Assembly (NCBI GenBank): GCA_965226585.1
Contig: OZ245366.1
Coordinates: 64,001-128,000 of the forward strand
Direction: 5' to 3'
Length of the DNA: 64,000 nt
From: Thermodesulfobacteriota bacterium
GTDB lineage: Bacteria; Desulfobacterota_D; UBA1144; Nemesobacterales; Mycalebacteriaceae
Shown here: piece by piece, positions 7,781 through 19,533 of the stretch
How positions within the stretch are numbered: the stretch's first letter is position 1
How the letters are laid out: every line of letters begins with the position of its first letter
Position numbers and translations under genes: made by a program
The notes under the pieces: model-generated
What the model saw: only the letters and a program-made list of their open reading frames with translations
Databases searched by the model: none
Told to the model about the DNA's origin: nothing

Positions 7781-8986
7781 ATGAAACCCGGAGCAGAAAC
7801 AGAGCCCGTGTTTGCGGCGATAGGGATTCCGTGCGAAAGCGGAGAACTGACGCTTAGCGGCAGAGCGGCGGAAGTTGTGAGAAAAAGCCGTGTTTTTTCG
7901 GGCGGAAAAAGGCATTTTGAAAAAGTGCGCGAACTCCTCCCAGCCGGCGGCGAGTGGATAGACATCGGCGGCGACATTGAAAAGACGCTTAAAGAATACG
8001 ACCGGCGGCGGAGGGGCGGAACCATCGTGATATTCGCTTCGGGCGACCCGCTTTTTTACGGAATTGGCTCAACCCTCAGGCGACTGCGCCCCGAATGCGA
8101 ACTTGAGGTTTTTCGCGCTCCGAGCAGTGTGGAAACGCTTTGCCGCAGAGCGGGAGTTGAGGCGGACGGCATTGCGGGGGCTTCTGTTCACGGACGCGAC
8201 TGGCACGAACTTGACCGCGCCCTGATTGGCGGGGAAAAACTCACCGGGCTTCTGACCGATTCCGTGAACTCACCGGATGCGGCGGCGGAAAGGATGGTTT
8301 TCTACGGATTTGCGGATTATAAATGCCTCTGCGGAGAGAGGCTCGGAGAAAAGGACGAGAGAATAAGGTCTTTTTCTTCGGCGCGGGAGATGGCGCGGAC
8401 AGAATTTTCACAGCCGTGCGCCGTTGTGCTTGAACAAATTTCAGAGGCGGGCGGAGAGAAAAATGCGGAAAGCGCGGAGTTTGAAACCTTGCGCGGCAAG
8501 CCCGGAATGATTACAAAACCGGGGGCGCGCCGAATGGCGATAGAACGGCTTGAGCTTGACCGCGCAGAGCATTTCTGGGACATAGGTTTTTGCACGGGTT
8601 CAGTTTCAGTTGAGGCGCGGCGGCGTTTTCCCGCGCTGAGGGTTGCGGCGTTTGAAAAAAACCGCGACTGCGAAGAGGTGATTGAGAAAAACGCGAAAAG
8701 GTTTTCAGCGCCGGGAATAAAAGTTGTTATGGGGGATTTTTTTGAGAGCGGGGCGGAAAAACTTCCCGCGCCGGACGCCGTTTTTATCGGCGGACACGGC
8801 GGGAGGCTTGAGGATATGATAAACACATTGGGGAAAACCGTCCGGCGGGGCGGCAGGATTGTGATAAACAGCGTTACGGAAGAAAGCGGGAAAATATTTC
8901 GCGAAAAATCCTGCGGGGCGGGTTTTGAATTTACCGGTGAGAAAAAAGCGGACAACGTGGAAATTTTAAGCGCGGTGAAAAAATGA
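7781..8986 (+). CDS. cbiET: Precorrin-6Y C5,15-methyltransferase (decarboxylating), CbiE-CbiT fusion
   Basis: FASGDPLFYGIG, SVHGR, GMITK, WDIGFCTGSVSVE and PDAVFIGG motifs. Confidence 0.92.
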   Translation: MKPGAETEPVFAAIGIPCESGELTLSGRAAEVVRKSRVFSGGKRHFEKVRELLPAGGEWIDIGGDIEKTLKEYDRRRRGGTIVIFASGDPLFYGIGSTLRRLRPECELEVFRAPSSVETLCRRAGVEADGIAGASVHGRDWHELDRALIGGEKLTGLLTDSVNSPDAAAERMVFYGFADYKCLCGERLGEKDERIRSFSSAREMARTEFSQPCAVVLEQISEAGGEKNAESAEFETLRGKPGMITKPGARRMAIERLELDRAEHFWDIGFCTGSVSVEARRRFPALRVAAFEKNRDCEEVIEKNAKRFSAPGIKVVMGDFFESGAEKLPAPDAVFIGGHGGRLEDMINTLGKTVRRGGRIVINSVTEESGKIFREKSCGAGFEFTGEKKADNVEILSAVKK

Positions 8987-10527
8987 AAAAAACAGCTGTA
9001 ATTGCGGTCTCAAAAGACGGAATAAAAATAGCTCGCGAAATCGCTGGGGAAACACACGCGGACATAGTTTCCACAAAAAAAGGAGACGGAATAAAAACCG
9101 TCAAATCCGTTTCCGCTTTCACGGCTGAAAACTTCGGCAAATACGGGGGTTTTATATTTATCGGCGCGCTTGGAATATGCGTCCGCTGTATCGCGCCGTG
9201 CATAAAAAACAAAAAAACCGATCCGGCGGTCGTCAACATTTCCGAAAACCGCCTTTACGCGCAGTCGGTTCTGTCGGGGCATGAGGGCGGAGCAAACGAA
9301 CTCGCGAAAAAAATCGGGAAAATTATCGGCGCGCGTCCGGTTATCACAACAGCGTCCGGAATCCGCCCGCTGTGCGTGGGGCTTGGAAGCCGCAGGGGGA
9401 TAGACCCGGCGGAGTTTGTCAAATCTTTTGAGAAGGAGATGGCAAAACGCGGATTTTCGCCTTTTGACATAAGCGCGGTGGCAAGCGCGAAAATAAAAAA
9501 AGATGAAGAGGCTTTTTCCGTTCTTGCCGGAAAACTGGGTGTTCCCTTCAAGGTTTTTGATGAGAGGGAACTGGCGAAAAAAACAAAACCCAACCCGTCC
9601 GCCATTGTGAAAAGAAAAACCGGAACAGACGGCGTTTGCGAGCCCGCCGCTCTTCTGCTTGCCGGAGCGCGGAAACTCGCGCTTGAAAAAACAAAAATAA
9701 CCCTGCCTTCCGGAAAGCAGTACACCTTTGCGGTCGCGGTCGCGGAAAATTACGGCGCGGGCGGGCTTGTTGCCATTGTGGGGGCGGGACCCGGAGACCC
9801 GCGTCTGATAACGGTTGAGGGGCGAGACCTTTTAAGGCGGGCGGATTTAATTCTCTATGCCGGCAGTCTTGTTCCCGAAAATCTGACACTTGAGGCAAAA
9901 GCGGAAGCGGAGATTAAAAACTCCGCCGTGATGACGCTTGAAGAGCAGATGAAAATAATGGAGCGTTTTTACAAAAAAGGCGCGCTGATTGTGCGGCTTC
10001 ATTCGGGCGACCCCGCAATTTACGGGGCAACCGCCGAGCAGATGAAAATAATGGACTCAAAAAAAATGGATTTTGTTGTGGTGCCGGGTGTTTCGTCTTT
10101 TCAGGCGGCGGCGGCGCGGCTGGGGGCGGAACTCACCGCGCCGGAAATAACGCAGACGATAATCCTCACGCGGGGCGAGGGAAAAACCCCGATGCCGGAA
10201 ACGGAAAAACTTGCCGGTATGGCGGCGCACCGTTCCACGATGTGTATTTTTCTGAGCGCGAAAACCGCGCGCAAGGTTCAGGCGGCGCTTCTTGAGAGTT
10301 ACAAACCGGAAACCCCCGTGGCGGTTCTGCACCGCGTAACGTGGGAGGATGAAAGAATATGGCGCGGCGAGTTAAAGAACCTCGCAGACATTGTGAGAGA
10401 CAACAAACTGACGCGCACGGTTTTAATTGTGGTTGGAGACGCGCTGAAAAACGGCGGAACGCGCTCGCGCCTCTACCACCCCGGATGGAAACACCTGTTT
10501 CGCGCCGGAGGGAAAAAGAAAAAGTGA
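8983..10527 (+). CDS. cbiGF: CbiG-CbiF fusion (cobalt-precorrin-5A hydrolase + precorrin-4 C11-methyltransferase)
   Basis: N-half: GICVRCIAP...DPAVV...LSGHEGGAN...VITTAS, GVCEPAAL. C-half: VGAGPGDP, LYAGSLV, RLHSGDP, PGVSSF, QTIILTR. Confidence 0.93.
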   Translation: MKKTAVIAVSKDGIKIAREIAGETHADIVSTKKGDGIKTVKSVSAFTAENFGKYGGFIFIGALGICVRCIAPCIKNKKTDPAVVNISENRLYAQSVLSGHEGGANELAKKIGKIIGARPVITTASGIRPLCVGLGSRRGIDPAEFVKSFEKEMAKRGFSPFDISAVASAKIKKDEEAFSVLAGKLGVPFKVFDERELAKKTKPNPSAIVKRKTGTDGVCEPAALLLAGARKLALEKTKITLPSGKQYTFAVAVAENYGAGGLVAIVGAGPGDPRLITVEGRDLLRRADLILYAGSLVPENLTLEAKAEAEIKNSAVMTLEEQMKIMERFYKKGALIVRLHSGDPAIYGATAEQMKIMDSKKMDFVVVPGVSSFQAAAARLGAELTAPEITQTIILTRGEGKTPMPETEKLAGMAAHRSTMCIFLSAKTARKVQAALLESYKPETPVAVLHRVTWEDERIWRGELKNLADIVRDNKLTRTVLIVVGDALKNGGTRSRLYHPGWKHLFRAGGKKKK

Positions 10528-11318
10528 AAAACGGAGAAAAGAAAATCCCGCCCCGCGTTCTTGTATTCGGCGGCACAACCGAGGGGAAAAAAGCGGCGGC
10601 GGCTCTTGATGCCGGAAAAACGCGCTATTTCTACTCCACAAAAACACGCACGGATTTTAAGCCGTCTGTTTTCTGCGAATACGTATGGGGAGAAATGGAC
10701 GGGAACACCCTGCCGGAGTTTGTGAAGAAAGAAAAAATAAAACTGATTGTGAACGCCGCGCATCCTTTTGCCCGCCACCTTCACGAAACGGTTTCGCTTG
10801 TGTCTGAAAAAATGAAAATACCCGTAATCCGCTACGGCAGAAAATATCCCGAAAGAGTGTCTCACCCTTCCGTTGTTTATTGCGACAACTACTCCGGGGC
10901 GGTAAACGAACTGAAAAACACAAAAGGCGCGATGATTATTTTAAGCGGTGTGCAGACTCTTGCCGCGCTTAAACCCCTGTGGGAAAACAGAGATGACTGC
11001 TACGCCAGAATTCTGCCAAGAAAAACCTCCGTTTCTCTGGCGGTAAAACAGGGCTTTCCCGAAAAGCGGCTCATAACCGCCATGCCTTCACGGGACGCGG
11101 AAAAGGAAAAACAGTTTTTTAAAAAACTGAACATTAAATCAGTCATCACAAAAGAAAGCGGAGACACGGGCGGACAGGACGCGAAAATAAAAGCGGCGAT
11201 TGAAACCGGAGCGAAAACGGCAATTATTAAAAAACCCCGCAGTCCGTTTTTTACGGCAACGGTTTTTTCTCCCGAAACACTTACTGAAAAAATAAGGGAA
11301 ATGCGCGATGTGTCTTGA
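10524..11318 (+). CDS. cbiJ: Precorrin-6A/cobalt-precorrin-6A reductase (start re-called at GTG 10524)
   Basis: LVFGGTTEG, NAAHPFA and ITKESGDTGG...KI motifs; GTGA overlap with the cbiGF stop. Confidence 0.9.
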   Translation: MKNGEKKIPPRVLVFGGTTEGKKAAAALDAGKTRYFYSTKTRTDFKPSVFCEYVWGEMDGNTLPEFVKKEKIKLIVNAAHPFARHLHETVSLVSEKMKIPVIRYGRKYPERVSHPSVVYCDNYSGAVNELKNTKGAMIILSGVQTLAALKPLWENRDDCYARILPRKTSVSLAVKQGFPEKRLITAMPSRDAEKEKQFFKKLNIKSVITKESGDTGGQDAKIKAAIETGAKTAIIKKPRSPFFTATVFSPETLTEKIREMRDVS

Positions 11319-12420
11319 AACTCCTCCCTCCGACACAAAAAAAATGAAAACCGGACTCACCACCGGCGCCTGCGCGGCGGCTTGCTCAAAAGCGGCGGTT
11401 TTGTGCCTTCTGGAAGGAAAGAAAATAAAAAATGTTGAAATAAATCTGCCGGGCGGAAAAACAGCGAGTTTCAAGATAGAAAATTGCGAAAGCGCGGGAA
11501 ACAGCGCGACCGCAACAACGGTGAAAAACGCGGGAGACGATCCGGACGTTACGCACGGGGCGGTTATAGGGTGCTCGGTTTCTCTGAACAACACGGGTGA
11601 AATAAGGTTCGCGCGCGGAAAAGGGGTCGGAAAGGTAACCCTTCCGGGACTGGGAATAGAGATAGGAGAACCGGCGATAAACACGGTTCCGAGAAAGATG
11701 ATGAGCCGTATCGTGAAGGGCCTGCTGAAAGAAAACGGGCGCGGCGGCGAAGGGGCGGAAATAAAGGTGTTTGTTCCCGAAGGCGCGAAACTGGCGAAAA
11801 AAACCCTGAATTCGCGGCTCGGCATTGAGGGCGGCATATCCATTATAGGAACAACGGGAATCGTAAGGCCGTTTTCCGCCGCCTCATACGTCGCAAGCAT
11901 AGTGCAGGCGGTGAAAATATGCTCTGAAAACGGATGCGGAAAGGTTGTCGCGTCATCCGGGGGAAGGAGCGAAAAGTATCTCAAAAAACAGTTTCCCGGC
12001 CTGCCGGACTACGCTTTTATACAATACGGCAACTGGATTGGCAGGCTTCTGGACGCGGCGGAAAGAGAAGGAATTCAAGACCTGACCCTTGCGACAATGC
12101 TCGGCAAAGCGGTTAAACTTGCGGGCGGCGATATGGACACGCACAGCGGAAAAACCCTTTGGGACAAGGAAGTTGCGGCACAAGCGGCGGAGAGATGCGG
12201 GGCGCGGGAAGCGGCGGACAAGATTAGAAATCTGAACATCGCGCGGCGGCTTACTGAGATTTTTCCGCTTTCCGGCGGAGAGCCGTTCTATGTTGAACTG
12301 CTTAAACAGTGCCGAAAACACTGCGCGCAGAGATTCAGCGGCGTTCTCAGACTCGCCCTTGTTGGAACTGACGGGCAAATAGTGTGGTATCCTGAAACGG
12401 AAGATGCGGACAATGGCTGA
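11308..12420 (+). CDS. cbiD: Cobalt-precorrin-5B C1-methyltransferase
   Basis: [63 protein letters not shown]. Confidence 0.95.
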
Positions 12421-14149
12421 AAAAAGCGTGAAAATCTTTCCATTTACGGCGATAACAGGGCAAGACGACTTGAAACTCGCCCTTGCGCTTTGCGCGATTG
12501 ACCCGCAAACAGGCGGGGTTCTCGCTCGCGGGGAAAAGGGAACGGGAAAAACAACTGCGGTGCGCTCGCTGGGAGATATGCTTTCAGGCGGCGGACGGGG
12601 GTTTCCCGTTATAAACCTGCCCATCGGCGCGACTGAAGACAGGGTTCTCGGCGCGATTGACCTTGAAAAACTGATTAACGAAAAGCGAGAATCGGCTCGC
12701 GCGGGGCTTCTTGAACAGGCAAACGGCGGAATCCTCTACATAGACGAAGTGAACCTGCTTGACGACTATTTGACCGACATACTTCTTGACGCGGCGGCAA
12801 CCGGCGAATATATGCTGGAAAGGGACGGAATTTCACGAAATGTGAAAACGCGCTTCCGCCTTGTCGGAACAATGAATCTGGAGGAGGGAGACCTCAGACC
12901 CCAGCTTTTGGACAGATTCGGCTTATGCGTTGACGTGAAAGCCCCCGCAAGCGCGGAAGCGCGGAGGGAAATAGCGCAAAATAGAATGGGTTTTGATTCA
13001 AATCCCGAAAAGTTTTCCTCTGATTTTGAGGAAAAACAGGAAAAAATGCGGGAGCGCATAGAAAAAGCGGCGGAAAATCTTGAATCCGTTAAGGTGACTG
13101 AAGAAATTTTTGAAAAAGCGTCCGCGCTCGCGATTGAAAGCGGAGCGGAGGGAATGAGGGCGGATATTCTGATTGTTAAATCCGCGCGCGCGTTTGCCGC
13201 GTTTGAAGGCAGAGACAAAACCGCCGCGGGCGATGTTGAGAAGGTTGCGCCTTTTGTTTTAAGACACAGAAGCCCGGCGGACACACCTGCTGACAAAACG
13301 GAAAAAAAAAACTCCCGAAATCCCGACCTTGAAAACGGCGACCTGAAAAACGTACCCCCGAAGCATGAAAAAGACGAATTTCAGGTAATTGCCGACTCCG
13401 GATGGTTTTACAGAGCGGAAAAACCCTTCTCGCCTGAGGGGGATTACAGAGGAATTGAAATTGACACGGAGCCGCCGCCCGAAAGACGCGGGCGTTTTGT
13501 GAGCGCGGAACCCGCCGCCCGGGCGCGGGACAAAACAAAAAATGGAAAACAAAAAACCGATATTTACGAAACCGCGCGGCAGTGGGTTGCTCGCGGAGAG
13601 TTCAAAATTCACCGCAGAGCCGGGCGCGGGCGCGGAAATATATCCGTTGTTTTTCTCGTTGATTCCAGCGGCTCAATGGCGGCGGGAAAACAAATAGCGC
13701 ACGCGAAAAAAATCATCGGAGAAACGGTTCGGGAAAACAGGGGGAAGAAGGTGGAGTTCTCCGGAGTGGCTCTTGTGAATGACGGCGCGCGCGTTTTTTC
13801 ATCTTCGGGGACGGATTCGGGAAAACTGATTGAAAATCTCAAAAACCTGAAAACCGGCGGAAGAACCAACATGAGCGCGGGCATCGCGCTTGTCGGACAA
13901 ATTTTGAAAAAAACCGCGAAAAGAAAAACATCATCCGCCGTTCACATATTTACGGACGGCAGAATAAACTTTTGCGAAAACGGCGGAGACCCTTTTGAAG
14001 AAAGCGTGAAAAGATTTGGAGCTGTTATAGACAAATCGGTAAAAACAACCGTTGTTGACACGGAATCGGGTTTTGTGAAAATAGGGGCGGCAAAAAGGTT
14101 TGCCGATAAAACCGGAGCGTCTTATGCGCGGGCGGACATGGGAAAATAA
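12413..14149 (+). CDS. ChlI/ChlD-like chelatase subunit (AAA+ plus VWA), probable CobS/T substitute
   Basis: FPFTAITGQ, Walker [18 protein letters not shown], Walker [24 protein letters not shown]-terminal VWA with MIDAS DSSGSM and TDG. Confidence 0.9.
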
Positions 14150-14165
14150 ACGGGAGGGAAATACA

Positions 14166-14738
14166 TTGAAGATTTACACAAAAAAAGGCGACACGGGAAA
14201 AACCGCGCTTTTCGGCGGAAGGCGTGTTGAGAAAGACGACACGCGAGTTGAATGTTACGGAACGCTTGACGAGGCAAACTCAACCATCGGGCTTTTGCGC
14301 TCAAAACTCGGCGAAAAACACGAGTGGCAGAGCAATCTGCACAAAATACAAAAAGACATGATGGATATGATGTCGCACCTTGCGCGTCCGTCTGATTCGC
14401 ACAAGGAAAATAAAAACCCAATGCCGGAAGACGGCGCGGTTTTCTGTGAAAACTGGATAGACGAAATTGAGGAGAATATGTCGTCTCCTTCGGACTATTT
14501 TCTGCTTCCGGGCGGAAGCGAAATATCCGCGCTGTGCCATGTTGTTAGGACGCAAATCAGAAGAGGAGAGCGCAAACTTGCCGCGCTTATGAGAGAGGAT
14601 GAAGTTCACCCCGCCATACCTTCATACATAAACCGCCTTTCGGATCTGTTTTTCACCCTCGCGAGAGCGGAGATGGACTCCGCCGGAGTTGCCGAAGAAA
14701 AATGGCAGTTATTTCTTTACAAAAAGAAAAAGAAATAA
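14166..14738 (+). CDS. PduO-type ATP:cob(I)alamin adenosyltransferase (start re-called at TTG 14166)
   Basis: KIYTKKGDTG, YGTLDEANS, FLLPGG, RRGER and YINRLSDLFF motifs; GGGAGG RBS upstream. Confidence 0.92.
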   Translation: MKIYTKKGDTGKTALFGGRRVEKDDTRVECYGTLDEANSTIGLLRSKLGEKHEWQSNLHKIQKDMMDMMSHLARPSDSHKENKNPMPEDGAVFCENWIDEIEENMSSPSDYFLLPGGSEISALCHVVRTQIRRGERKLAALMREDEVHPAIPSYINRLSDLFFTLARAEMDSAGVAEEKWQLFLYKKKKK

Positions 14739-14741
14739 AAA

Positions 14742-16970
14742 TCAAAGCGGTTTGAGATAAGACGCGAGAAGCCTTTTCTTTCCGGCTGAGCGGAAAACCA
14801 CCGTTACCGTCGCTTTAGGTCCGCTTCCCTCAACCTTCACAACCTGCCCGCGTCCGAATTTTTTGTGCAAAACAAAAATGCCCGCGCAAATAGAAACGCT
14901 CTGCTGAGAAACACTGCTTTCGGTTGAATCCCCGTCAGGAAGCGCGAAAACCGCCCTTTTCATCCCGGAGACGCGAACTTCTTCGTGTTCAAAAACAGGA
15001 ATGGACACAAAATGTTCGTCTGCCTTCAAATGTTTGGGAATTTCACCAAAAAATGGAGAGGGAGACGCGGCTTCAGTTATCCCGTGTAAATTTCTCTTAA
15101 CCGGATAACAAAGGAAGAGCCGCTTCATCGCCCGTGTCATTCCGACATAAAAAAGCCGTCTTTCCTCCTCAATATCATCAGTGCGGGAAAGAGGAATAAG
15201 ATTCTGGTTCACCCCTGCTATGAAAACGACCGGAAACTCAAGACCTTTGGAAGCGTGAAGGGTCATAAGTTTCACTTTTTTCCCGTCTGTTTTCGCGTCT
15301 GTGTCGCTTGCGAGCGCGATACCCTCAACAAACCCCTGAAAACCGTCGATATTTTCGGGATTGTTGTCATATTCCTGCGCGGAGTTCAAAAAGCCGTCCA
15401 TGTTTTCCAATTTGTCTTCATCGTTTTTGAGAAAATCCTTGTAGCCGCTTTTTTCTATAATGTGACCGAGTACGTCAAAAACCCCCCTGTCCAGAGAAAA
15501 TTCTGACAATTCGTCCATCATAATCACAAACTTCTCAACCGCATCAGCCGCTCTTTTTTTCAAAAAGCCCCCTTTTGCGGCTCTGCGCGCGGCTTCCATA
15601 ATTGACACGTCATTTGCCGAAGCGTAACGGGAAATCTCTTCAACGGTTGCTGTTCCTATACCCCTCGGCGGAGTGTTGATTATTCTCGCCGCAGCCATAT
15701 TGTCTGAGGGATTTACGATAAGACGCAGATAGGAAACCAGATCCTTAATTTCCGCGCGCGCGTAAAAACTTAACGCGCCGACAAGTTCACAGGAAATACC
15801 CGACTCTTTGGAAAATCTTTCCTCAAGAAGACGAGACTTGGCGTTTGTGCGATAGAGAACAGCAAAGTCTTCGGGCTTAAAGTCTCCGGAATCAACAAGT
15901 GATTTTATTTTTGAAACAACAAAATCCGCCTCGTCAAATTCGTTGCGCGCCTCATACACGCCCAGCGGTTCGCCCTTTTCCCCATCCGTCCACATATTTT
16001 TTTTAACCCCGAACTGGTTTTCGCTGATAAGGGCGTTTGACGCTTCAAGTATCGTTGAGGTTGAACGATAGTTTTTATCAAGTTTAATTTCCTTCGCCCC
16101 CGGAAAATTATTTGAAAACTCGAGTATGTTTTTCACTTCCGCCCCGCGCCATCCGTAAATAGACTGGCTGTCATCACCGACCGCGAAAACATCGGCATTG
16201 TTTTCTCCGAGCATTTTTACAAGTTGATACTGAATGCGGTTTGTATCCTGATATTCGTCAACAAGGATGTGGCTGAAACGTTTTCTATATTTTTCCAGAA
16301 TTTCACGGTTATTCCCGAAAAGACGCATGGCGAGCAGGAGCAAATCGTTAAAATCAAGCGCGTTGGAGTTTTTCAATGCAATATCGTAACTGTGCATTAA
16401 TTCAATTTTTGGCGCGATATTTCTTTCCCAACTCTCAAAAGAATCTCTGGACGGCGGATAATCGCCGCCCCTTTTAAATCTGTCTATTAACGACATCACA
16501 ATTTCCGGCGACACACTCGTCTCCTCCATCCCCATGTCGGCAATGCATGTTTTGAGTACTCTTTTCTGGTCGCTATTGTCGTAAATGACAAAGTTGCCTT
16601 TATATCCGAAACCAAGATTCTCGATTTCGCTCCGCAATATACGCGCGCAGATTGAATGAAAAGTTCCAAGCCATATCCCCGAAATCTTGTCGGGAACAAG
16701 CATCTCCACTCTTTCTCTCATCTCACGCGCCGCTTTGTTTGTGAAGGTTACGGCGAGGATTTCGGACGGGCAAACCCCTTTCTCTTTTATAAGAAATGCT
16801 ATGCGGCTTGTCAGAACACGGGTTTTCCCCGAACCCGCCCCGGCAAAAACAAGAAGATGCCCGCCCGTGTGACAAACCGCCTCAAACTGTTTGGGATTCA
16901 AATCGGGAGTGTCAACAGGGGATGATTCAAGTGTTACAACATCCGGTTTGAGGTTTTTATTTTTTTTCAT
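14742..16970 (-). CDS. pcrA: UvrD/PcrA superfamily-1 DNA helicase (start probably ATG 16970)
   Basis: AGAGSGKT, VTFTNKAA, VDEYQDTN, VGDDSQSIYGWRGA, NYRST, MTLHASKGLEF, EEERRLFYVGMTRA; C-terminal HKKFGRG Tudor-like domain. Confidence 0.93.
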   Translation of the reverse strand: MKKNKNLKPDVVTLESSPVDTPDLNPKQFEAVCHTGGHLLVFAGAGSGKTRVLTSRIAFLIKEKGVCPSEILAVTFTNKAAREMRERVEMLVPDKISGIWLGTFHSICARILRSEIENLGFGYKGNFVIYDNSDQKRVLKTCIADMGMEETSVSPEIVMSLIDRFKRGGDYPPSRDSFESWERNIAPKIELMHSYDIALKNSNALDFNDLLLLAMRLFGNNREILEKYRKRFSHILVDEYQDTNRIQYQLVKMLGENNADVFAVGDDSQSIYGWRGAEVKNILEFSNNFPGAKEIKLDKNYRSTSTILEASNALISENQFGVKKNMWTDGEKGEPLGVYEARNEFDEADFVVSKIKSLVDSGDFKPEDFAVLYRTNAKSRLLEERFSKESGISCELVGALSFYARAEIKDLVSYLRLIVNPSDNMAAARIINTPPRGIGTATVEEISRYASANDVSIMEAARRAAKGGFLKKRAADAVEKFVIMMDELSEFSLDRGVFDVLGHIIEKSGYKDFLKNDEDKLENMDGFLNSAQEYDNNPENIDGFQGFVEGIALASDTDAKTDGKKVKLMTLHASKGLEFPVVFIAGVNQNLIPLSRTDDIEEERRLFYVGMTRAMKRLFLCYPVKRNLHGITEAASPSPFFGEIPKHLKADEHFVSIPVFEHEEVRVSGMKRAVFALPDGDSTESSVSQQSVSICAGIFVLHKKFGRGQVVKVEGSGPKATVTVVFRSAGKKRLLASYLKPL

Positions 16971-16983
16971 CTGCCGAGAGATT

Positions 16984-17730
16984 TCAGTCCGTTTTTTTGC
17001 CGCCTTTCGTCTCGCCGTGCCCAAAGTGTATGCCGCACTCCTTGTCTGAGCCGGTTTCCCACCACCACCTGCCCGCCCTTGAGTCCTCTCCGGGCTTCAC
17101 GGCTCGCGTGCAGGGGGCGCAGCCGATTGACGGGTATCCCATGTCGTGAAGCCGGTTGTAGGGAACTCCGTTTGATTTCACATATTCGCACACACGGTTT
17201 TCAGTCCAGTCAACTATGGGGTTCACTTTCAAAATTCCGCCGTTAGCATGGTCTATCTCAAACTTTTTCGCGTCCGCCCGCTGAGCGGTCTGCTCTCTGC
17301 GGAGCGATGTTATCCACCCGTCAAGACCTTGCAAATACTTGCGGAGCGGGTTGACCTTTCTGACTTCACAGCAAAGAATACGGTTCTCAACGCCTTTGTA
17401 GAAAAGGTTTATCCCGCGCTCCGAAACCATCCGTTCAACCTCCGCCGTGTCGGGGAAAACCAACTCCACCTTCGCACCGTAACGTTCTCTGACCTTTTCA
17501 AGAACTTCGTATGTCTCGGCGTTCAGCCGCCCGGTGTCAAGCATGAAGATGCGCGCGTCCGGCTTGACCTTCATAAGAATATCTATGAGAACGGAGCCCT
17601 GTATCTGAAAACTGGTGGCAAGCGACACTTTCGGGTGAAGTTTTTCCATCGTCCACAACAGAACTTCTTCCGGGCTCGCGCCCTCAAAACGCCTGTTCAA
17701 CTCTTCGGTCTGTTCCTGTGTGAATTTCAT
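16984..17730 (-). CDS. cysH: Adenylyl-sulfate (APS/PAPS) reductase, 4Fe-4S type
   Basis: LDTG, CCEVRKV, YPSIGCAPCT, RAGRW and KECGIH; the CC and CxxC cluster ligands indicate an APS-reductase type. Confidence 0.93.
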   Translation of the reverse strand: MKFTQEQTEELNRRFEGASPEEVLLWTMEKLHPKVSLATSFQIQGSVLIDILMKVKPDARIFMLDTGRLNAETYEVLEKVRERYGAKVELVFPDTAEVERMVSERGINLFYKGVENRILCCEVRKVNPLRKYLQGLDGWITSLRREQTAQRADAKKFEIDHANGGILKVNPIVDWTENRVCEYVKSNGVPYNRLHDMGYPSIGCAPCTRAVKPGEDSRAGRWWWETGSDKECGIHFGHGETKGGKKTD

Positions 17731-17737
17731 GGAAACC

Positions 17738-18715
17738 CTATTTTATCACAAACATCATCGCAACCGCGTATCCGACTGCCACCGTAACGCACGGCACGGC
17801 AACCCAGAAGAAACCTATTCTCAAAACGTGGCGGTTTCTCGCGGTTTTGCCAAACCCGTGCTGGGCGCACGAAAAGCCCACAATACCGGCGGTTACAATC
17901 TCGGTTATTGAAACCGGAATGCCGTAGAGAGACGCCACAACGATTATCACCGCCGCAGTCGCCTCAACGGTTATCGCCCTTATAAGACATATCTCGGTTA
18001 TCTCCTTTCCAACGGTTTCAAGCACCCTGCCTCCCAGAATAATCGCGCCCGCCGCCATTGCCACACCCGCGAAAAGCGCGCCCGTTGAAGACTCAAAAAG
18101 CCCAAGCCCCACGATGGGACCCACGGCATTTGCCGAATTGTTCGCGCCCGCGGAAAACGCGAGAAAGGTTCCCGAAACCGTTACGCACCACTTGAGAACG
18201 CGGCTTACACCTTCCTCGGAAAAGTTGTCAACAAAGTAGTTGAGTATCCGGTAGTAGAGAAACTTTCCGACAAAAAACCCGACCGCCCACGACAGCACCG
18301 GAGCGGCTATCCACCAGCCGATTATCTGAATAAAACGCTCGTGATTGAGAGCGCCGTAGTAAAGCCCTATGCCCGCGATGGAGCAAACGATGGCGTGCGT
18401 TGTGGCAACCGGAACGCGCGAGATGTTTGCCACCGAGACAAACACAAGGGCGATGACAAGCACAAGAGCGGTCAGCAAAGCGTCTGAGGAGAAAACATCC
18501 TGCGGCACGATGCCTTTTCCCATTGTTTCAACCACCGGCGCGCCTGCAATAACCGCGCCCAGAATGGCGAAAACGGCTATAAGAACAACCGCCTGCCTCT
18601 TTGTTCTCGCGCCCGCGCCGTATGAGGTTGCCATCGCGGCGGCGGAGTTGTTCGCCCCCACGTTGATAGCGAGAAGACCCGACAGCACAACCGCGACTAT
18701 TAAAATCGTTTCCAT
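17738..18715 (-). CDS. PiT-family anion permease, probably CysP-like sulfate permease
   Basis: Two PiT repeats, VGANNSAAAM and FSAGANNSANAVGP; co-oriented directly upstream of cysH. Confidence 0.8.
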   Translation of the reverse strand: METILIVAVVLSGLLAINVGANNSAAAMATSYGAGARTKRQAVVLIAVFAILGAVIAGAPVVETMGKGIVPQDVFSSDALLTALVLVIALVFVSVANISRVPVATTHAIVCSIAGIGLYYGALNHERFIQIIGWWIAAPVLSWAVGFFVGKFLYYRILNYFVDNFSEEGVSRVLKWCVTVSGTFLAFSAGANNSANAVGPIVGLGLFESSTGALFAGVAMAAGAIILGGRVLETVGKEITEICLIRAITVEATAAVIIVVASLYGIPVSITEIVTAGIVGFSCAQHGFGKTARNRHVLRIGFFWVAVPCVTVAVGYAVAMMFVIK

Positions 18716-18736
18716 CTCAAAACCTCACCCATAGAC

Positions 18737-18779
18737 AACAAACAAAAACGCGCCCTCCCCCGTTTTGCGGGGAAACACG
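18737..18779 (-). terminator. Attenuator terminator-like hairpin in the permease leader
   Basis: Minus strand CGTGTTTCCCCG-CAAAA-CGGGGGAGGGCGCG followed by TTTTTGTTTGTT, about 20 nt before the permease start. Confidence 0.65.
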
Positions 18780-18842
18780 AATAAAAACGCCTGTTTTCCT
18801 CATCTTCCGCCCATTAGAGGACGGAGGAAAACCGCGTTCAAA

Positions 18843-18926
18843 TCACATACAGCAGGAACAGCGCGCGCAACCGCAGAAACGGGCGGCGCGAAAAGAAATA
18901 AAAAAACTGTAAAGCGCGTCTGACAT
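18843..18926 (-). CDS. Cys-rich leader peptide MSDALYSFFISFRAARFCGCARCSCCM (27 aa)
   Basis: Manual translation; 5 Cys in the last 10 sense codons; lies between a sigma70 promoter and the sulfate permease-cysH genes. Confidence 0.75.
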   Translation of the reverse strand: MSDALYSFFISFRAARFCGCARCSCCM

Positions 18927-18953
18927 TGCTAAATTGTCCGGCTCCGAGCGTTA

Positions 18954-18982
18954 ATGCTATGCGGAACAGGGGTGAAAGTCAA
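18954..18982 (-). promoter_or_regulatory. Sigma70-type promoter for the leader-permease-cysH unit
   Basis: TTGACT (18982-18977), 17-nt spacer, TAGCAT (18959-18954). Confidence 0.65.
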
Positions 18983-19026
18983 TTCCGCCGGGCGCGCCAA
19001 ATCCGTTATAATGGTCTTTCTGAGCA

Positions 19027-19533
19027 ATGGCAAAATCACGCAAACCCGTCATATATCTGGCAAGCCCGTACGGTTTTTCAACCCGGCAGAAGGAAGTGCT
19101 TCTTCCCGAAATCGTGAAAGAACTTGAAGACACGGGCGCGACCGTGTGGGAGCCGTTTGAGCGCAACAACCAGAAGGAAATCCTTTCAAAAAAGGGCTGG
19201 GCTTACAAGGTGGCGCGGGCGGACTTTAAGGACACGCGCGATTGCGATGCCATTTTCGCCGTTGTGAACGGAACCCCGCCCGATGAAGGGGTCGCGGTGG
19301 AACTGGGAATCGCGATGGCGCTGGGAAAACCCACCTTTCTGTTCCGCGACGATTTCCGCAGAGTTACGGACAGCGAAAACTATCCGCTCAACCTGATGCT
19401 GTTCGCGGGCATGCCCGAAAAGAACTGGCGCGACTACTACTACACCTCGCTTGAAGAGATAAAATCGCCGAAAAAAGCTCTTGTGAAATGGATAAAAAAA
19501 CAGACCCGCACACAGCGGAAAAGCGCGGGCTAA
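19027..19533 (+). CDS. Nucleoside 2-deoxyribosyltransferase family protein
   Basis: IYLASPYGF, CDAIFAVVNG, DEGVAVELG (catalytic Glu) and NLML motifs; TATAAT at 19007-19012. Confidence 0.85.
   Translation: MAKSRKPVIYLASPYGFSTRQKEVLLPEIVKELEDTGATVWEPFERNNQKEILSKKGWAYKVARADFKDTRDCDAIFAVVNGTPPDEGVAVELGIAMALGKPTFLFRDDFRRVTDSENYPLNLMLFAGMPEKNWRDYYYTSLEEIKSPKKALVKWIKKQTRTQRKSAG

Follow-up and report, generated by a model that had tools for sequence, protein, structure and literature searches.

A candidate cysteine-sensing leader before a CysP-like permease and an APS reductase gene in one genus of Dadabacteria

In the classical attenuators trpL and hisL, control codons for the amino acid of the pathway are followed by a stop codon just before a hairpin and by a terminator-like hairpin with a U-run. 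For cysteine, leaders without terminators have been predicted in Actinobacteria (PMC1262725, available text), and the leaderless polycysteine sORF Ms5788A has been described as an attenuator in mycobacteria (bioRxiv 10.1101/834739, available text), which, within the literature found, are the only bacteria in which cysteine-codon attenuation has been shown experimentally. The original prediction for the locus described here named Actinobacteria as the group with such leaders, but they are also predicted outside it: uORFC-8-2, upstream of cysS in Rhodobacterales, is predicted in the available text to combine a Cys uORF and a terminator in cysteine-dependent attenuation (PMC8632094). In the Salmonella speF leader, translation of the uORF orf34 (speFL) opens a long-range helix between leader and RBS, and Rho adds termination (PMC6386406, available text). 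A uORF, translation repression and Rho are also brought together in the available text of PMC12121999, while that of bioRxiv 10.1101/2020.06.22.165886 makes no mention of cysteine. In mostly open-access literature, supplements aside, we found no description of the element reported here or of a Cys leader in Dadabacteria.

We analysed a 64,000-nt stretch of DNA (the window) from a 1.48-Mb genome (G000), in which a Cys-rich leader ORF lies before genes for a permease and an APS reductase (Table 1). The promoter and the 27-codon ORF, with five Cys in its last 10 codons, are located as originally predicted, and the ORF (18926-18843) translates to MSDALYSFFISFRAARFCGCARCSCCM. The TTGACT-17-TAGCAT site is one of two promoter-like sites in 18500-19400 (shuffle mean 0.3), from which we infer a transcription start near 18947. 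Cys accounts for 1.0% of residues genome-wide; among 678 intergenic small-ORF candidates, the leader is the top Cys frame and the sole one with five tail Cys (one further candidate has four), and five Cys in 12 codons were reached by 1/500 dinucleotide shuffles of this leader. No Rfam family matched the leader, and its peptide gave no match in Pfam or NCBIfam. The 16S 3′ end in this genome reads CACCTCCTT. The best NCBIfam match of the permease is the Bacillus CysP model, at 220.8 bits and under its cut-off of 400. The order cysH-uvrD is found in 5/5 genus loci of sufficient length and in 0/25 others; no minus-strand sigma-70-like site was found within cysP/cysH of G000, and uvrD is likely in one transcript with these two genes. 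Upstream, a nucleoside 2-deoxyribosyltransferase-family gene (19027-19533, plus strand) lies between pyrE and the leader in this genome, divergent from the leader, and in G001, G003 and G004 pyrE directly precedes the promoter. Elsewhere in the window, 7781-14738 (plus strand) holds a cluster resembling cobalamin biosynthesis, with a chelatase-like subunit and an adenosyltransferase confirmed and the rest assigned by eye; the Rfam search of the window gave no cobalamin riboswitch at or above the cut-off.

Table 1. Features of the leader and the genes behind it, in window coordinates.
Feature	Position	Strand	Description or basis
Candidate sigma-70-type promoter	18954..18982	-	TTGACT 18982-18977, 17-nt spacer, TAGCAT 18959-18954
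H0, 5′ strand	18911..18947	-	Leader 5′ UTR, start codon, codons 2-6
Cys-rich leader ORF	18843..18926	-	27 codons, ends Cys-Ser-Cys-Cys-Met-UGA
Helix H1	18849..18910	-	Codons 6-7 (18910-18906) with last two Cys codons (18853-18849)
Helix H2	18862..18890	-	Mid-leader strand with first Cys codons
Hairpin 1	18785..18839	-	After stop codon; base under ribosome at stop
Hairpin 2 with U-rich run	18739..18779	-	
H0, 3′ strand	18729..18757	-	Hairpin-2 3′ arm, U-run, spacer up to permease Shine-Dalgarno
Permease RBS and start codon	18713..18730	-	Sequence: GGGTGAGG 18730-18723, ATG 18715-18713
PiT-family (CysP-like) permease	17738..18715	-	PF01384
Thioredoxin-dependent APS reductase (cysH)	16984..17730	-	TIGR02055, 258 bits, above 235.3 cut-off
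UvrD/PcrA helicase	14742..17024	-	Immediately after cysH

The permease has orthologues in 38/41 genomes of the order, and the leader is present in 6/6 genomes of the family, all from one small-genome genus with permeases 78-83% identical. The six leaders have 26-28 codons, 5-9 Cys, a Cys-Met-UGA end and a permease ATG 117-135 nt beyond, and gaps in their alignment are multiples of three inside the ORF and not after the stop. At least two consecutive Cys codons occur in all six; the last 12 codons hold at least three Cys in 6/6 and at least five in 5/6 (null at most 2/500). TTGACT, with a TA..T-like -10 box at 16-17 nt, and both hairpins also recur in 6/6, such that the Cys cluster and the stems, whose absence from relatives would have spoken against the original prediction, are kept throughout the genus. 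Within it, tail Cys codons are fewest, and hairpin 1 is weakest, in G002.

From 115 fetched permease loci we kept 83, after dropping 21 duplicates, eight without a 5′ end, two with less than 300 nt upstream and one without a hit, and a frame with at least three Cys in its last 12 codons occurs in all six genus loci and in 2/77 others. The two outside frames (L018 and L035) are weak and unconserved, with a three-Cys null of 2-18%, and are taken as chance, that at L018 because L013, from the same genus as L018, lacks it. Searched at the DNA level, 101 genomes of the order gave the leader only in the six of the genus described here, along with five further hits of 22-28 bases (E 0.004-0.008), and a metagenome scan yielded no additional genus member (44 loci, best segments 26-66% identity). 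Unlike uORFC-8-2, the element stands in front of a permease gene. Neither in G000 nor in five relatives was another conserved Cys leader found upstream of sir, cysK/M or cysS, with an isolated two-Cys frame upstream of cysS in one of the five.

Several codon-level features are fixed as well. Met-UGA (18848-18843, minus strand) is invariant in 6/6, as are TGT-TCC at Cys -5/Ser -4 and TGT at Cys -2, and a U-rich stretch that separates H1 from H2 (18905-18891, minus strand) is unpaired. These invariant positions and the stretch may reflect a methionine input, a pause site or a site for S1 or Rho. Two forms of read-through were considered and rejected, namely UGA read-through in frame to the permease, which is unconserved, with stop-to-ATG distances falling in all three frames, and selenocysteine read-through, given that no SelB scored over the TIGR00475 cut-off in G000 (94.6% complete).

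RNAalifold, run on the six genus leaders, recovered unaided hairpins 1 and 2, two helices that involve the Cys codons (H1 and H2) and a helix, H0, that closes the structure by joining the 5′ UTR to the region of the U-run. In this consensus structure, which is derived from the same sequences that it is scored on, 93.7% of cells pair and the covariation score lies above that of 500/500 shuffles. As the alignment is poor in variable parts, we set the duplex energies of own-genome pairings against those of cross-genome pairings for 18 segment pairs, drawn after inspection, using 720 permutations that ignore kinship. Only two of the 18 tests fall under 0.05/18, those of H0 and H2, each at the permutation floor (p = 0.0014). 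H2 forms about 9-11 bp in the free state of 5/6 leaders, while in G001 it forms only with a ribosome at or near the stop, and both-side changes are seen in three of its five aligned pairs; H1 has five pairs, 96.7% of cells paired and one pair changed on both sides in 2/6.

Behind the stop codon, hairpin 1 is present but longer (18839-18785) than the 18832-18793 first assigned to it, with -26.4 kcal/mol (z -5.1), 0/200 shuffles as stable, a cognate p of 0.0097 and a base helix significant in 6/6. Hairpin 2 with its U-run lies where it had been placed (-17.1 kcal/mol, z -2.1, 5/200 shuffles, cognate p = 0.27). It passes the terminator test in 4/6 and fails in G001 and G003, and the gap between hairpin 2 and U-run is at most 2 nt in 4/6 and 6-8 nt in G001 and G003. 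A further proposed pairing, of the Cys-Ser codons with hairpin 1, is possible at -15.4 kcal/mol versus -24.9 for hairpin 1 itself, but it is populated in no ribosome state (at most 0.6 bp). The element has traits of trpL and hisL in its control codons for the pathway amino acid, its stop codon within bases of a hairpin and, in 4/6, its terminator-like hairpin with U-run. Unlike in those leaders, however, the control codons form part of the 3′ strand of the first hairpin, and the freed strand is therefore behind the stalled ribosome.

The original prediction took a helix between the leader and hairpin 2 as the main competing structure, whereas the best-supported competing helix is H0, which it had overlooked. 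H0 runs beyond the U-run to the permease SD in 6/6 (13-16 bp in G001, G003 and G004), and in 6/6 the real 5′ end outperforms 1000 dinucleotide shuffles (fractions 0.001-0.041). The portion of H0 past U-run position 8 is cognate-specific alone (p = 0.0028), and H0 therefore needs read-through RNA. It is populated in the free full-length leader of 5/6 (not G001) and covers the SD itself in only 2/6 folds; an extension over SD and AUG was rejected, being seen in this genome and partly in G004 only, with a cognate p of 0.55.

The consequence for the permease RBS can be estimated from the cost of opening the region -25..+9, which, like the segment borders, was picked after data inspection and on six related sequences. 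Covering the leader as far as a ribosome stalled at codon -5 lowers this cost in 6/6, from 14.1 to 8.4 kcal/mol here and from 10.8 to 6.4, 12.4 to 7.7, 17.5 to 6.6, 12.4 to 7.9 and 8.1 to 5.9 kcal/mol in the relatives. Masking lowers opening costs trivially, and for this reason only the 5′ end was shuffled as a control: the real 5′ end raises the opening cost above that of shuffled ends in 4/6 (0-1/60), with a marginal effect in G005 (6/60) and none in G002 (58/60 shuffles cost as much or more). A narrower region, -16..+9, gave no consistent cost change, and a stalled ribosome by itself shifts the cost of the RBS region by at most about 2 kcal/mol.

From the sequence evidence as a whole, it is likely that the leader senses cysteine supply via ribosome stalling. 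With a probability of roughly 0.48, we further propose that it reports charged tRNA-Cys to the cysP-like gene and cysH mainly as a translational lock. When cysteine is ample, the first ribosome would clear the leader, H1/H2 and hairpin 1 would fold, and H0 would then close over the leader start region and the entry to the permease RBS, giving the OFF state, to which termination by Rho, encoded in the genome, and by hairpin 2 with its U-run may contribute. With cysteine short, a ribosome stalled on the Cys codons would block H1/H2, and the freed mid-leader strand could take the loop and 3′ arm of hairpin 2 in an 18-bp helix; trailing ribosomes would cover the leader start, so that H0 could not form and the RBS would be open, giving the ON state. 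In the folding model, this switch would need ribosome queuing or folding kinetics. We favour H0 as a mainly translational OFF state because intrinsic terminators are sparse in the genome (22/260 gene ends versus 8/260 inside genes), rho is present, no promoter was detected for uvrD behind cysH, and H0 stands out in the tests above. Such a lock and termination at hairpin 2 are mutually compatible, and termination may be the main output, since hairpin 2 with its U-run is a good terminator in 4/6.

The chief rival, possible but less likely than the translational lock, is a transcription attenuator in which hairpin 2 and its U-run would terminate and a Cys stall would free the mid-leader strand, preventing termination. 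H2 would then act as an anti-antiterminator, with the terminator forming once the ribosome reaches the stop. At its centre is the 18-bp duplex between the leader and hairpin 2 of the original prediction, which is real here at -29.4 kcal/mol and strong in 4/6 genomes (-23 to -29 kcal/mol), but weak in 2/6 and without clear cognate specificity (p = 0.08). The accompanying logic of ON upon shortage is supported. The partner strand, 18890-18871, is normally sequestered by pairing with the Cys codons in a hairpin (cognate p = 0.0014), and a stall would therefore free it. In constrained folding with a 28-nt ribosome mask, where a ribosome in a loop is treated as free unpaired bases and long-range helices are overstated, stalling at Cys -8 to -3 releases the mid-leader strand, and this strand then pairs with the base of hairpin 2 in G000, G004, G002 and G005. 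Codons -8, -5 and -3 were masked in all six, although -8 and -3 are not Cys in G002.

The proposal of two folds selected by ribosome position is borne out by this folding only in part. Stalling cuts the predicted terminator-base probability 30- to 1000-fold in G000, G004 and G002, an effect equalled by 1, 2 and 4 of 70 shuffled leaders, respectively, the last being marginal, whereas the switch is absent or reversed in G005 (31/70), G003 (54/70) and G001 (23/70). G001 switches at its upstream Cys codons only, and the switch in G005 varies with the footprint chosen. The same architecture is predicted for uORFC-8-2 (PMC8632094, available text), which also favours attenuation, and in one variant the inner part of H0, which abuts the U-run in all six duplexes, would be the terminating duplex and the outer part a fail-safe on read-through RNA. 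Nevertheless, the 18-bp helix takes mostly the 3′ arm of the terminator, and no stall-specific sequestration of the 5′ arm was found: until the 3′ arm has been transcribed, every state holds the 5′ arm with 1-9 kcal/mol. The segment pairs D:E and C1:E are not cognate-specific (p = 0.20 and 0.23), and, in contrast to trpL and hisL, no antiterminator taking this arm was found. When a strand pairs immediately 5′ of a U-run, it tends to promote release and not to prevent it, which makes 3′-arm capture doubtful as antitermination. In addition, attenuation leaves unaccounted for that H0 covaries past the termination point, and it would shut off uvrD together with the operon.

Other switching schemes were rejected. 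With everything upstream of the ribosome masked, both hairpins form in the stalled and stop states alike, and a his-type cascade (Cys codons with the post-stop strand, hairpin-1 3′ arm with hairpin-2 5′ arm) is not cognate-specific (p = 0.62 and 0.20). Pairing of the post-stop strand with the hairpin-2 3′ arm reaches -28.6 kcal/mol in G001 (p = 0.026), yet it is populated in the G003 stop state only.

Rho-dependent attenuation as the primary output, with the pyrimidine-rich leader interior as a loading site that stalled or queued ribosomes would cover, is unlikely. The rho gene is present, an 18-19-nt pyrimidine-rich stretch is unpaired between H1 and H2, and Rho has been suggested for actinobacterial cys leaders (PMC1262725, available text) and demonstrated for speF (PMC6386406, available text), but this stretch is short and its pyrimidines are mostly U and not C, the downstream RNA is highly structured, and the covariation of H0 is left unexplained. 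We consider a reverse logic very improbable, in which a stall would let hairpin 1 and a U-run terminate and a ribosome at the stop would open the hairpin base, turning the genes on with plentiful cysteine. In its favour, a ribosome at the stop masks the conserved base of hairpin 1, which every Cys stall leaves free; hairpin 1 has a U-run behind it in G000, G001 and G003, of which the latter two have poor hairpin-2 terminators; and with no ATP sulfurylase found, the pathway could run in either direction. However, G004, G002 and G005 lack a U-run behind hairpin 1, and the presence of sulfite reductase and a cysteine synthase-family gene, together with cysP-sat-cysH in relatives, points to assimilation. 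Equally improbable is a small Cys-rich peptide with metal or sulfur binding in place of a sensor, for which 5-9 Cys per 26-28 residues and a conserved C-terminal pattern could speak, but against which stand the variable Cys count and spacing, the tying of Cys codons into covarying H1 and H2, the position directly before sulfur genes and the lack of a Pfam or NCBIfam match.

Returning to the translational lock, it resembles Ms5788A in its short ORF with Cys codons near the stop before cysteine-pathway genes, and in that stalling relieves an RNA duplex limiting access to the downstream RBS, which here is predicted only. Unlike leaderless Ms5788A, it has a 5′ UTR of 14-24 nt, as counted from the predicted promoters; its Cys codons find their partners inside the leader (H1, H2) instead of in the SD region, and near the RBS it is the start region of the leader itself that supplies the closing strand. 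No pairing of the Cys strand with the RBS was found among the top 32 of 91 segment pairs. With uORFC-8-2, it shares tandem Cys codons inside the first stem, a further stem and a U-run, whereas that uORF controls cysS, has two Cys codons and two stems, and in the available text is described with no long-range closing helix (PMC8632094); the sequences were compared via Rfam only, which gave no match. As in speF, a long-range helix is predicted to join the 5′ end or uORF with the downstream RBS region, here supported in 6/6 up to the SD but over the SD itself in only 2/6 folds; speF differs in its arginine/ornithine signal, its leader of about 500 nt, a helix directly over the SD and, in the available text, no Cys run (PMC6386406). 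In its predicted mode of action the element resembles the mycobacterial and speF leaders, but it belongs to neither type, and it fails one defining test of the classical attenuators.

The pathway behind the leader is only partly as first described. The label of sulfate uptake and reduction holds for the permease and APS reductase but is incomplete, as Sat and CysD were each found in 0/6 genus genomes; CysN was not above the cut-off in G000. Across the order, Sat occurs in 11/41 genomes (f5, f6 and f7), in f6 and f7 between permease and cysH, and permease and APS reductase are kept without a Sat found in 30/41 (G000-G005, f2, f3, f4 and f8), which implies another APS source or another permease substrate. 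Sulfite reductase, cysteine synthase-family genes and cysS are present. At G000:C1:623985-625161 (L147:486-1662, plus strand), a gene for a TusA/YedF-like sulfur carrier stands immediately before one for a CysM-like cysteine synthase, a pair that suggests a carrier-based or thiosulfate route to cysteine. In G002, the sulfite reductase match is split over two open frames of 433 and 116 aa (C5:28101-29272) and a cysteine synthase-like region has several stops (C12:40440-41208), through either decay or assembly error.

The leader occupies a slot that is filled differently in most relatives, where pyrE is followed by a divergent sigma-54 activator (weak receiver-domain match) and then the permease. 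Scanning with a pattern that we take to represent the sigma-54 motif, we observe it 52-103 nt upstream in 56/77 other loci, in 0/6 genus loci and in 2/83 controls. The rpoN gene was found in 0/6 genus genomes (95-98% complete, three of them single contigs) versus 33/35 others. An orthologue of the activator (at least 56% identity) is present in 23/35 other genomes of the order and was not found in the genus (0/6), in family f8 (0/8) or in G006, G007, G014 and G024. At L089:1415-2815 (minus strand), the activator lies between pyrE and permease and faces a conserved sigma-54 motif, making it a candidate dedicated regulator of sulfate assimilation in Dadabacteria. In a midpoint-rooted permease tree of 29 sequences, with one duplicate and a partial G002 sequence left out, the genus forms one clade (100/100) and pairs with f8 (92/87); in f8, pyrE adjoins the permease across a gap of about 100 nt that carries no leader. 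The simplest reading is that the activator was lost first and that the sigma-70 promoter and leader arose once in the genus stem, likely after loss of both the ancestral sigma-54 promoter and the activator. Such replacement is not obligatory, as other lineages have lost the activator without gaining a leader.

A bolder reading, which we regard as doubtful, is that a newly arisen sensor reads ribosome traffic rather than position, with the queue behind a Cys stall shielding the leader start and thereby keeping a one-shot helix from locking leader and operon RBS together, and that it replaced the circuit of sigma-54 and enhancer protein when sigma-54 was lost from the lineage; if true, this would be an instance, datable in the lineage, in which an RNA switch took the place of a transcription system that had been lost. 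At about 230 nt, the element is a compact construct for asking whether queued ribosomes signal in an amino-acid attenuator. The locus also flags a gap in sulfur metabolism, with APS reductase and permease kept, and apparently regulated, without an ATP sulfurylase found. The element extends the cysteine-codon leaders to a distant lineage with a different wiring, and its origin can be assigned to one genus, at the position where most relatives have a sigma-54 promoter and divergent activator, as an example of reduced genomes regaining regulation after sigma factor loss.
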